Notes under the pieces: model-generated
What the model was told of the DNA's origin: nothing
Databases searched by the model: none
The model's input: only the letters and a program-made list of their open reading frames with translations
Assembly (NCBI GenBank): GCA_965279035.1
Contig: OZ257142.1
Location: 1,952,001 to 2,016,000 of the forward strand
Length of the DNA stretch: 64,000 nt
DNA from: Bacteroidia bacterium
Lineage (GTDB): Bacteria; Bacteroidota; Bacteroidia; M30B66
Direction of reading: 5' to 3'
Made by a program: the position numbers and the translations under genes
Shown here: positions 57,500-61,659 of the stretch, one piece after another
Layout of the letters: the number at the start of each line of letters is the position of its first letter
Numbering within the stretch: the first letter of the stretch is position 1

Positions 57500-58576
57500 A
57501 TGAATCGATTGATACTTATTTTTTGTTTTTTGTCGGGATATTCTTTCTCACAACAAACACCTGTTTTTCTTGCTGCATTTACAAATGGTGGAACCTTTTA
57601 TGATGAAGGTGGTTTTGGCACCTTGTCAGTTCTTACAGGTGACGCATCAATCATTAACACATTTAATTTACCAAATGAAAATCCAGGTTTAGACGCTCAA
57701 CATCCAGAATTAATTGAGACTTCAAACGGTAAAATTTATGGGCTTCATCGAGATGGTGGAAATGAAGGATTAGGTTTATTATTTGAATTTGATCCACTAA
57801 CACAATTTTATTCAATAAAACATGAGTTTAGTGATTCTGGCCTAATTGGTCATTCTCCCGAAGGTGGGATGATTTTATTACCTGATGGGAGATTATTAGG
57901 AACTACCTCATCAGGTGGAATTAACCAATCGGGAACTATTTTTTCATTTTCACCCATTAATGGGGCAGTACATGTTGAAGCTCAATTTGGTAATTCAACT
58001 GCTAAATGGCCTTCAGGTCAATTACTAATGGCATCAGATGGATGGGTTTATGGAACAACTTCAAATGGGGGCTTATCGGGATTAGGAACTATCTATCGTT
58101 TTCATCCGAATACAAATCAGCTGCAGGTTGTTTATGAATTTAATTCCATTGCAACTGGAACAGAACCAACTGGAGGTCTTTGTGAATTATCTGATGGGAA
58201 ATTATATGGATTTTGTAAATCGGGAGGTGAAGCTGCTTCAGGAGTTATTTATTCATTTCAATTAAATAATCAACAATATCAAGTTGTAAAATCGTTTGGC
58301 TGGAATGGAGATTATGGATATCCAGAAACCGGAAATGCTCCTGTTAAACTAGATGAATCAACATTTATTGCAGTTTTGGCAAACGGAGGAACTAATGGAA
58401 ATGGAAGTTTATTAAAGTGGAGCACATCAACACCTGATCCAGAATTTCTTTATCAGTTTTCAGTTTCAACAGGTGGTCAATCGAACGGACGAATAGTGAA
58501 ACATTCAAATGGAAATTGGTATTGGCTTTCAATCAATTTTACAAATGCAGCTCAAGTAGTTGAATATAATTTTAAT
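57500..58576 (+). pseudogene. 5' part of an interrupted Gloeo_Verruco (GloVer) repeat T9SS protein
   Basis: Signal peptide plus DGxLYGTTxxGG..GTIF repeats; the frame ends at a TGA that is the first 3 nt of the inserted element; no CTD. Confidence 0.88.
58571..58576 (+). repeat. Left flanking direct repeat TTTAAT (putative target-site duplication)
   Basis: Identical to 59248-59253; extends to a 12-bp repeat with one mismatch (TATAATTTTAAT vs TTTAATTTTAAT). Confidence 0.7.
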
Positions 58577-58598
58577 TGACTATCGGCTTGACTGAACC
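58577..58598 (+). repeat. Left terminal inverted repeat TGACTATCGGCTTGACTGAACC
   Basis: Reverse complement matches 59226-59247 except for 2 adjacent nt. Confidence 0.92.
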
Positions 58599-58621
58599 TA
58601 AATGTTTTTTACTTCTGAAAT

Positions 58622-58860
58622 ATGACGAAAGAAGAAATTGCCAAGTACGCATACGAACCGACTAGTGTAACACTAGAACCGAAATCACTTTTAAAGATGG
58701 TGAAATTATAGTTGGGTACTTTCAAGGTAATACTCAAAAGAGCGATAACTTTTTTGAAAATAAATGGAGTTTTGTTAAAACGCCAATTATGAATCCCAAA
58801 GGAATAGAAACCATTTATAATGGAAATGATTTTCAAAGCGTTCGTGTTATTTATGTTTAA
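58622..58860 (+). pseudogene. Frameshifted ~79-aa passenger gene
   Basis: MTKEEIAKYAYEPTS (from ATG 58622) joins with a one-base shift near 58660-58680 to CNTRTEITFKDGEIIVGYFQG...VRVIYV*, ending TAA 58860. Confidence 0.55.
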
Positions 58861-59174
58861 AAACCTCTTGATTTAAGCCGTTTTGCAGTTAGCATTAAAG
58901 GGAAAGTAAAGTGAGGGTTCATTTTTAACATTGCGGCTCTTATAGCATCTCTAATCTCAAGCGATGGCTGAATACGATATGCGTAGTTAATATCTATCTT
59001 CTCTTGTTCAGTCATTTTACTTCCGATTTCCATTTCTTCAGCTGAATAAAATTCGTTGAATATTACTTCTAGCATTCGAAGGTTATCAATTGTTAGGTCT
59101 TTTAAGGAAATTTGCACATCATAATTCTTGGAATTATGTTCAGCTATTTTAATTGTTACTTCTGGATTCTCCAT
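58857..59174 (-). CDS. Hypothetical passenger protein (105 aa from ATG 59174)
   Basis: MENPEVTIKIAE...KRLKSRGF; A-rich leader upstream; lies wholly inside the TIRs; no recognisable motif. Confidence 0.7.
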   Translation of the reverse strand: MENPEVTIKIAEHNSKNYDVQISLKDLTIDNLRMLEVIFNEFYSAEEMEIGSKMTEQEKIDINYAYRIQPSLEIRDAIRAAMLKMNPHFTFPLMLTAKRLKSRGF

Positions 59175-59225
59175 TTTAAATTGTTTTGGGAGTGAATGTT
59201 TGAATTGTTGTTTCAAGTGCGACGT

Positions 59226-59247
59226 GGTTCAGATAAGCCGATAGTCA
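59226..59247 (-). repeat. Right terminal inverted repeat GGTTCAGATAAGCCGATAGTCA
   Basis: Inverted partner of 58577-58598. Confidence 0.92.
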
Positions 59248-61659
59248 TTTAATTTTAATTCAAACTCAATAAATGTTGTTTTAGATTCAATTCCTACCGG
59301 ATTCATATTGGGAACCCCTTTTGAGCATTCCTCTCAAAATCTAATTATTTTATCAGGAACAGGGAATCATTATTATGGTGGAGAATTGCACACATTTAAT
59401 CCTGAAAACCTAAGCGATTCGTTTATTCCACTTCATTTTAAATCTGAAGGAGCTCGACCTATTGGACCCTTGTGTTTAGCGTCGGATGGAAATTATTATG
59501 GATTATGCAGCATAGGTGCATTTCCTGAAGACAATTTAGGTTATGGTGCAGGTTTTAAATACAATCCTAGCAATCATTCCTATACACGATTATTTACGTT
59601 TGAAGGGACTGTTGTTAGAAGCGCAACTGGGATATTTACAGAAGGGGATACTGGTAAATTGTATGTACTAGTTGTAGGATCTCAAGGTGGTAGACCAAGA
59701 ATTATTCAATATGACATTAATACTGATGAATTGACTGTTGTTGTGAATTTCACAAATCTAGATGGGGATATTCCTTCCAATGGTTTGTTGAAAGCGAGTA
59801 ATGGTAAATTATACGGAACAACTACAAATGGTGGAGGAGGTGGAAGTATAGGAACCCTCTTCGAATTTGATCCAGCAACTTTGCAGTTTTCTACTCGATA
59901 TCGATTTAATAATCAAGCAATAGGTGCACAACCTTATGGCACTCTTATACAAGTGGCTCCAGATAAATTGATTGGTACAACTTTGTCGGGTGGTTTTACT
60001 ATTTCCGGGACTATTTATGAATTCACTATATCGACTGGAGTTGTTGTTTTAAAACAAACATTTAATTCAAGCAATGGGGCTAAACCATATGGTGGTTTAA
60101 TAGATGGAGGAGATGGTTTATTATACGGAACAACTTCCGAAGGAGGAACTGAAAATGAAGGAACAATTTACAGTTATAATTTCGTGAATAATACAATACA
60201 AACACTTGCAAGTTTTGGTTCTTTTGATCTCAATCATCCTTATTGTAATTTGACGATAGCATCTGATGGTTGGTTGTATGGTGTGACGAATGGAAATAAT
60301 GTTCGTGGTGGATTATTTCGATATAGCCCATCAAATCAACAATTGGAATTAATTCGTCAGTTTCGCAATAACGAAGGGTATGGAGCTATTTACAACCATC
60401 AATTACAAGAATTAAATGGAGTTTTAACTACTAATTCTATTCCTACAACACTTTGTTATGGTAGTTCTTTTTATGTGAAATTTGCTTGTAGTTCTTCCTT
60501 TCCAACAGATCATGTTTTCTCTGCAGAACTGAGTGATTCAAATGGAAGTTTTATTAATCCTTTGATCATTGGAAGTGTAGTTTCATCAACTGCCGATTCG
60601 GTTCTCGTTACAATTCCAAGTTCAATTCCATTGGGGATTGGATATCGCATTCGAGTTCGTGCTGAAGATGATTCAATGCTTAGTATTGATAATGGTTTCG
60701 ATATTACCATAGGCACTCCTGTTTTGGGAAGTGTAAATTTAGATTTGATAAATCAGGAGCCTATTTGTGCTGGAGAAGAACTACAATTCCAAGCATATAT
60801 CAGTGGTTTTACTAATTCGTGTCAATGGTTTTTGAACGATGTAGCATTTTTCAATTCTGGATTGTCGTTTATTAGTAATTCCTTAGTTCAAGGTGATGTT
60901 ATTTCGGTAAAACTTAATCCAGGTACAGGCTGTTTTACACAAACTCAATATGTGTCAAATTCCATTTATGTTGATTATTTTTCGAATGCTCTTCCAAGCG
61001 TGGACTTAGTAGTACCAACAAGCTTTTGCGAAGGATCAATTATCGATATTAATACCAATGATTATGCTTCTGGAAATTTGCCTACTTACAATTGGTACCT
61101 AAATGGACAACAACAAATCATAAGTAATTCAATGATCTCTATCCCATTGTCGATTGAATTAAATAATCAAACACTTTGGGTTGAAATGACTTCTTCTTTA
61201 ACTTGTGTAAGTCAATCGTCAGTATTTAGTGATACACTTGTGTTTGATATTCATGAGATTGATCAAACAGATGTATATGTAAATTTAGTATCGGGCGATA
61301 GTGTATTTGTAGGAGGCGCTTGGCAATATGAGGCTGGAACGTATACAGACATTTTAACGAATACATTTGGATGCGATAGTATTATTCAAACGTATGTGGA
61401 TATTATTTTGGATGATGGAAATCTAACTAATTCTAATGATTGGATTTTTCATTCCAATATAGAATGGGGAACAATACAATTTGGTTTATTAAATTCGATA
61501 GAATTCAATTGGGCACTTTATGATATTCTAGGTCGAAAGGTAAAAGCCGGAACATCCAATTCTTTAGTTGAATTGCATGTTGAAGATTTAACTTCAGGTG
61601 TGTATGTTTTGAGAATTGATTCAGGGATAAGAAATCACACTCAAAAATGGATAAAATAA
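59248..61659 (+). pseudogene. 3' part of the interrupted GloVer-repeat T9SS protein
   Basis: Frame is open from 59248 (FNFNSNSINVVLDSIPTGFI) into ORF 59308; no signal peptide; same repeats, Ig-like domains and CTD (LYDILGRKV...SGVYVLRI...QKWIK). Confidence 0.88.

Follow-up and report, generated by a model that had tools for sequence, protein, structure and literature searches.

A 675-bp cassette with IS1595-type ends and two small genes inside a surface-protein gene of a Bacteroidia bacterium

Two neighbouring open reading frames (ORFs) in the genome of a Bacteroidia bacterium (GTDB lineage Bacteria; Bacteroidota; Bacteroidia; M30B66) resemble pieces of a single surface protein and are separated by DNA bounded by inverted repeats, which raises the question of what the intervening DNA is and how it came to lie there. 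The locus belongs to a stretch of 64,000 nucleotides (assembly GCA_965279035.1, contig OZ257142.1, positions 1,952,001 to 2,016,000, forward strand), called the window below, and coordinates within it are counted from its first letter. The answer that we favour, with a probability of about 87%, is that a mobile insertion cassette (MIC) of 675 bp, derived from an insertion sequence (IS) of the IS1595 family but not itself autonomous, moved into the gene. The argument is built on the structure of the interrupted gene, on the termini and target-site duplication of the element and on relatives with the same ends that encode a transposase.

The interrupted surface-protein gene

The 5′ part of the gene (57500..58579, forward strand) encodes 359 aa, beginning with a segment that, judged by eye only, resembles a signal peptide. 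The 3′ part (59258..61659, forward strand) encodes GloVer repeats, immunoglobulin-like domains and a C-terminal sorting domain of the type IX secretion system (T9SS). The ORF called within the 3′ part, 59308-61659, starts at the TTG at 59308, which gives the longest restart; the frame itself has no stop codon from 59245 onwards, and the continuation of the protein amounts to 799 codons, counted from 59260. As an earlier reading of the locus from its letters alone (hereafter, the sequence-only reading) had proposed, the same repeats occur in both ORFs, with four stretches matching TIGR03803 (‘choice-of-anchor tandem repeat GloVer’) in the first and five in the second, and the T9SS tail is present in the second only, where it is matched by TIGR04183 (E = 1e-9) and also by PF18962. 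When relatives longer than the first part were sought, 8000 candidates were scored and 405 of them reached E <= 0.001. At the top stand three undivided proteins, P0002 (1171 aa), P0008 (1188 aa) and P0009 (1166 aa), and P0002 spans both parts: its residues 8-365 align to the first with 66% identity and its residues 364-1171 to the second with 69%. Ten of the 13 members of the 90% cluster of P0002 are likewise 1171 aa long, and one member is named as a T9SS protein of a Flavobacteriales metagenome-assembled genome (MAG). Because the orthologues are single proteins, because one of them covers both ORFs and because the repeats are shared, ORFs 57500-58579 and 59308-61659 are two parts of one, normally whole, gene, in agreement with the sequence-only reading.

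Excision of 683 bp restores a continuous frame (...VVEYNFN-SNSINVVLDS...) and joins 359 and 799 residues into a protein of 1158 aa that is collinear with the orthologue; the figure of 1160 aa given earlier is superseded with the corrected boundaries described below. After this excision, P0002 covers the two parts with neither gap nor overlap, ten residues separating EYN from DSI in both proteins, and the shorter, 6-bp reading of the target duplication would leave an insertion of two residues relative to P0002, a weak point in that the region is variable. The host ORF ends at the TGA at 58577-58579, which opens the conserved repeat core and serves as the stop codon of the truncated gene. Given this first triplet, an in-frame insertion of the element in this orientation would always end the host ORF at once. 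The 799 codons downstream are without a signal peptide, and the surface protein has very probably been lost. The insertion is recent, as was suspected from the sequence, because the target duplication is perfect and neither half of the gene carries any other lesion.

Termini, target duplication and family of the element

The inverted repeat described in the sequence-only reading is present as stated: TGACTATCGGCTTGACTGAACC occupies 58577-58598 and its reverse complement 59226-59247, with two mismatches (20/22). A search with the 22-nt end pattern, allowing up to three mismatches, found only these two matches in the 64-kb window, against 0.00 expected from 100 dinucleotide-preserving shuffles. 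These coordinates delimit the conserved core of the ends, and the TG...CA dinucleotides that were taken for the termini lie inside the element. When ends of the same type were compared across insertions, the outermost bases of the element proved to lie 2 nt beyond the TGACT...AGTCA core, with A at 12 of 12 termini followed by a variable base, so that the ends of the lineage read A-N-TGACTATCGGNTTAACTGAACC. The left terminal inverted repeat is therefore 58575..58598 on the forward strand (A-T followed by TGACTATCGGCTTGACTGAACC), and the right one is 59226..59249 on the reverse strand (the reverse complement, A-A followed by TGACTATCGGCTTATCTGAACC). Because the termini lie 2 nt outside the core and the 8-bp duplication falls in the same register, the element is 58575-59249, 675 bp in length, rather than 58577-59247. 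Its GC content (31-33%) differs little from the 34-38% of the host gene.

The duplication was examined by scoring direct repeats that abut the element at varied offsets in six independent insertions with these ends. In the register 2 nt outside the core, 44 of the 48 positions of an abutting 8-bp repeat match over the six insertions. Repeats of fewer than 8 bp, read in this register, agree to the same degree (92%), whereas the positions added by 10-bp and 12-bp readings match in only 6 of 12 and 5 of 12 cases. The duplication is perfect (8/8) in the window (TAATTTTA), in L001 (ATATATTA), in L002 (AAAAATAA) and in L010 (AAATAAAA), and matches at 7/8 in L009 and 5/8 in L007; given the composition of the flanks, an 8/8 match is expected by chance at about 1e-4 per site. 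The target duplication is thus the all-A/T octamer TAATTTTA, at 58567..58574 on the left and, identical at 8/8 positions, at 59250..59257 on the right. The hexamer TTTAAT, which the sequence-only reading saw on both sides of the element, does occur at 58571-58576 and 59248-59253. It is the overlap of the 8-bp duplication with the two variable terminal bases, and the duplication is neither of the two lengths between which the sequence-only reading wavered, 6 and 12 bp. Readings of 6, 10 or 12 bp share the register, and beyond 8 bp only about half of the positions match. The empty site would read ...GAATATAATTTTAATTCAAAC... with a single TAATTTTA.

Relatives with the same ends, whose recovery the sequence-only reading had proposed as a check, were found in other genomes and in metagenomes. 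The end pattern occurs at two loci in species-representative genomes (L001, from a Ferruginibacter MAG, and L002, from a Chitinophaga MAG) and at three loci in metagenome contigs (L007, L008 and L009), with none in viral contigs; among 301 genomes of the family of G001, it was found in G001 itself and in G080, the source of L010. Two of these elements encode a transposase. The L007 element (contig positions 109-1775, 1667 bp) encodes a 306-aa protein that matches DDE_Tnp_IS1595 (PF12762, E = 1e-25) and the zinc ribbon of IS1595 (PF12760, E = 1e-9) as well as the NCBIfam model NF033547 ‘IS1595 family transposase’ (E = 5e-54). The L010 element (positions 1499-2815, 1317 bp) is a compact autonomous relative whose transposase, also of 306 aa, is 72% identical to that of L007 and is present in one copy only in the 5-Mb G080 genome. 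Its nearest relatives on annotated plasmids, in Bacteroides and other Bacteroidota, are named ‘IS1595 family transposase’ (43% identity) and ‘IS1595-like element ISBbi1 family transposase’ (about 40%); ISBbi1 of Bacteroides is the closest element with a name. The L007 transposase was not found in viral contigs. In L007, the transposase stop codon is separated from the far end by some 690 bp of additional DNA, in which there is an ORF of 50 aa containing a hydrophobic stretch, and this element looks like an IS with passenger DNA.

The remaining relatives are MITEs (miniature inverted-repeat transposable elements) of 153-175 bp without coding capacity, at positions 2999-3152 of L001 (154 bp), 2850-3024 of L002 (175 bp) and 1917-2069 of L009, the third of them; L008 has the same ends and the same flanking sequence as L001. 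Their interiors are about 90% identical across the three contexts, each is flanked by an 8-bp A/T duplication, and each of the two MAGs harbours a single MITE copy. The ends of the window element match those of L001, L002, L007 and L009 with 95-96% identity over 22-23 nt; with L010, the left end matches over 28 nt at 89% and the other match extends over 24 nt at 92%. Apart from these ends of about 24 nt, the window element shares nothing with any of these elements.

As a control for the end architecture we used the annotated ISBbi1 copy of the Bacteroides fragilis plasmid pBFQ10c (L012, 640-1622), which has ends of the form T-C-TGATT(C/A)TCCG and an 8/8, all-A/T duplication, AATAAATT. In PMC8101967 the members of the IS1595 family are described as having a zinc finger together with a DDE domain and, usually, 8-bp duplications at their flanks. 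The ORFs of the element (58575-59249) contain no transposase detectable with Pfam or NCBIfam, and a tblastn search of the 64-kb window with the L007 transposase gave a best E value of 0.18, for a match outside the element, so the earlier description of the element as transposase-less stands. By its ends, which bracket two elements encoding IS1595-family transposases (L007 and L010), the element can be assigned to IS1595, the family that the sequence-only reading had been unable to name, and because its ORFs lack a transposase domain it is a derivative rather than an autonomous IS. Within the family, the ends may be most like those of the IS1595 or ISSod11 groups.

The cargo genes

Two small genes, which were noted earlier as carried genes of unknown kind, read inward from the two repeats and end back to back. 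One is intact; the other is frameshifted in the window copy. Cargo gene 1 (58622..58860, forward strand) consists of two overlapping frames, A (58622-58711, 29 aa and a stop codon) and B (58666-58860, 64 aa and a stop codon), which when joined give a small protein of 79 aa. Its ATG lies 23 nt inward of the left repeat, close to the position at which the transposase genes of L007 and L010 begin (29-30 nt by a hand count). A freshwater metagenome run (X1) contains two 151-nt contigs that match the interior of the cassette with 97-99% identity. The first covers 58640-58789 with one mismatch and one extra base behind 58666, and the second covers 58824-58974 with three mismatches; no X1 contig over the flanks or the junctions was found. 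Read by hand, the extra base joins frames A and B into an ORF of 79 codons, so that cargo gene 1 of the window carries a 1-base frameshift relative to the X1 copy. A read error in the window would not account for this, because deep contigs from three further runs (X2-X4) agree with the window. The 64-aa frame has a weak PHROG match (phrog_1865, of unknown function, E = 6e-4), and its features in the ESM Atlas resemble those of clusters of 60-79-aa hypothetical proteins from Bacillota and phages (score 0.95). A word-index search with the 64-aa frame returned nothing.

Cargo gene 2 (58857..59174, reverse strand) encodes an intact protein of 105 aa, P0001, which is on record as a called protein of that length on a 4.2-Mb contig. 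A word-index search recovered only the protein itself, and HMMER, run exhaustively against 1.84 billion representatives, yielded eight proteins at E <= 0.001: P0001, six small proteins (98-122 aa, E = 3e-15 to 2e-4) and P0126. The last, a protein of 2247 aa, matches P0001 over 30 residues only; it was set aside and excluded from alignment A1, which comprises P0001 and its six small relatives. All six are annotated just as ‘hypothetical protein’, and P0001 thus represents a rare family without a name. It has no Pfam, NCBIfam, PHROG or PADLOC family and no usable match in the ESM Atlas, and a profile built from A1 had no matches in 401 Bacteroidota genomes. The AlphaFold model computed from A1 shows a predicted beta hairpin followed by a helical hairpin (predicted local distance difference test score, 79.4). 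Foldseek found no match to it in the PDB at E <= 0.001, and the best match in a wide VIA-align search (Z = 7.7) falls on helical hairpins and is within background. The immunity protein Tsi2 appeared in both the Foldseek and the VIA-align lists, at background level only, and was rejected as a counterpart of P0001. So was the one match to P0001 in viral contigs, L014, where the protein concerned is a coiled-coil protein encoded between portal and capsid genes and the similarity was judged to be spurious and of low complexity. Rfam detected nothing in 58300-59500, and the element had no match in phage and plasmid collections.

Origin of the insertion and its known counterparts

Could the arrangement be an artefact of assembly, or natural? 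Three Logan contigs of about 10 kb each, from runs X2-X4 (‘organism A’), cover 58200-59650 with no differences and with a word depth of 190-620, so that both junctions, which the sequence-only reading had wished to see spanned, are covered. These runs represent one sample, possibly the source of the DNA analysed here, and what they show is that deep data assemble reproducibly; they are no independent confirmation. A chimeric assembly is hard to reconcile with these contigs, and a natural pair of genes with a spacer is contradicted by the single-protein orthologues of 1166-1188 aa and by the uniform length of most members of the P0002 cluster; nothing was found in favour of either possibility, and we consider both negligible. 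Equally little can be said for ends derived from an IS3- or IS21-type element, at which the sequence-only reading had hinted. The core does read TG...CA, as expected of such elements, but the enzymes encoded by L007 and L010, the two elements that have such ends and a transposase, belong to the IS1595 family. The termini proper are 2 nt further out than TG...CA and the duplication is of 8 bp, and the ends of ISBbi1, which is a named member of the IS1595 family, are built alike.

The main rival accepts the IS1595 ends and differs in the history behind them. It holds that a full IS1595-type element, perhaps with passenger DNA as in L007, inserted here and afterwards lost its transposase gene, or had it replaced, in situ, in which case the 675-bp unit never moved as a cassette. 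One copy of the cassette is known, L007 demonstrates that the lineage can hold about 690 bp of extra DNA beside its transposase gene, and one of the cargo genes is already decaying, all of which fit this scenario. Against it, there is no transposase remnant, the best tblastn match lying elsewhere in the window. An 8/8 duplication without a mismatch, and gene halves free of other damage, speak for a young insertion. To exchange about 920 bp wholesale for two genes unrelated to them would need time. Sample X1, a different one, also contains cargo that is nearly the same (97-99%), although the flanks are outside its contigs. We therefore disfavour decay in place and regard it as improbable.

Movement as a ready-made cassette, our preferred explanation, has its own weak points. 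Only one copy of the cassette was seen, and the 64-kb window contains no second pair of these ends. The X1 fragments are confined to the interior of the cassette and show no second insertion site, and X2-X4, being one sample and maybe the source of the window, are not independent proof. The ends are rare, with 2 of 301 genomes positive in the family of G001; in the 68 genomes of the order of G648, which was picked because it gave the best match (62% identity) to an 871-aa housekeeping protein among 401 genomes, the scan returned one single-arm match at three mismatches versus two control matches, which is chance level. A cognate transposase was not found in the MITE-holding MAGs, leaving one of the three genomes searched, G080, as positive. 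Finally, the duplication around L007 is poor (5/8), and no empty site was found at the DNA level, the orthologue being just 66-69% identical in protein.

The history that we propose is as follows. The cassette keeps the two 24-nt ends that are recognised by an IS1595 zinc-ribbon/DDE transposase, and where the gene for that enzyme would lie it has the two small inward-reading genes. A cognate transposase, presumably made elsewhere, would have bound both ends and cut the cassette from its donor site, and the cassette would have been pasted into the all-A/T octamer TAATTTTA, within the codons ...N-F-N... of the GloVer-repeat/T9SS gene; repair of the staggered cuts would have duplicated the 8 bp. 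The locus is best read as the outcome of mobilisation in trans by a DDE transposase, much as the sequence-only reading had proposed, and the chemistry is likely to have been of the cut-and-paste type. As to the cargo, our guess is that the two genes are accessory small proteins of phage type that merely hitch-hike. A bolder, though unlikely, extension is that the cassette belongs to a wider and so far undescribed pool of IS1595-ended cassettes by which small genes of phage type are carried back and forth among distant Bacteroidota, and in which the P0001 family would be selected, for example as a transposition helper or regulator or as an anti-phage or anti-defence protein. The same ends do occur in Chitinophagaceae MAGs and in the unrelated genome of the window, and if such a pool exists, the six relatives of P0001 should also sit between IS-type ends.

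For annotation, the consequence is that the two adjacent ORFs are to be read as one surface-protein pseudogene and a mobile cassette. More broadly, the comparison defines an IS1595-type lineage of Bacteroidota by its ends, its duplication of 8 bp and its all-A/T target. Four forms of this lineage exist: an autonomous IS, an IS that carries extra DNA, MITEs and a gene cassette. IS with passenger genes, or ‘transporter IS’, are reportedly treated in the IS1595 paper of Siguier, Gagnevin and Chandler from 2009, and the window provides one more case of IS1595-type ends serving as a common carrier of small genes. With ISBbi1 and the IS1595 family, the cassette shares ends of the form N-N-TGA(C/T)T-ATC(G/C)G and an 8-bp, A/T-only duplication, but unlike an IS1595-family IS or a transporter IS it is without any transposase. 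The MITEs of L001/L008, L002 and L009 have the same 22-24-nt ends and 8-bp duplications, and for this reason the cassette and the MITEs are presumably served by the same transposase. Unlike these small, non-coding elements, however, the cassette is 675 bp long and its two ORFs fill most of the interior.

The closest counterparts are MICs, and the novelty that the sequence-only reading attached to a transposase-less cassette is accordingly reduced. In the sections of PMC3129680 that deal with them, MITEs, MICs and IS with passenger genes are all treated as known IS derivatives, and MICs were, according to the relevant part of PMC3913671, first described as MIC231, which is mobilised in trans by the transposase of IS231A. 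As portrayed in these papers (PMC3913671, PMC3129680), the MICs, including MIC231 of Bacillus cereus and the qnrD and qnrS2 mic elements, consist of two IS-type inverted repeats and passenger genes without a transposase gene. The window element has the same composition: IS-type inverted repeats without a transposase, passenger ORFs and a target-site duplication, together with presumed mobilisation in trans. It differs from these MICs in its parent family, which is IS1595 rather than IS4/IS231, in its host, an environmental member of the Bacteroidota, in its cargo of two tiny genes, one of them broken, and in that its mobility is read from sequence. Collectively, these comparisons place the insertion, neat but unremarkable, in a class of mobile element that is already known, with no new mechanism.

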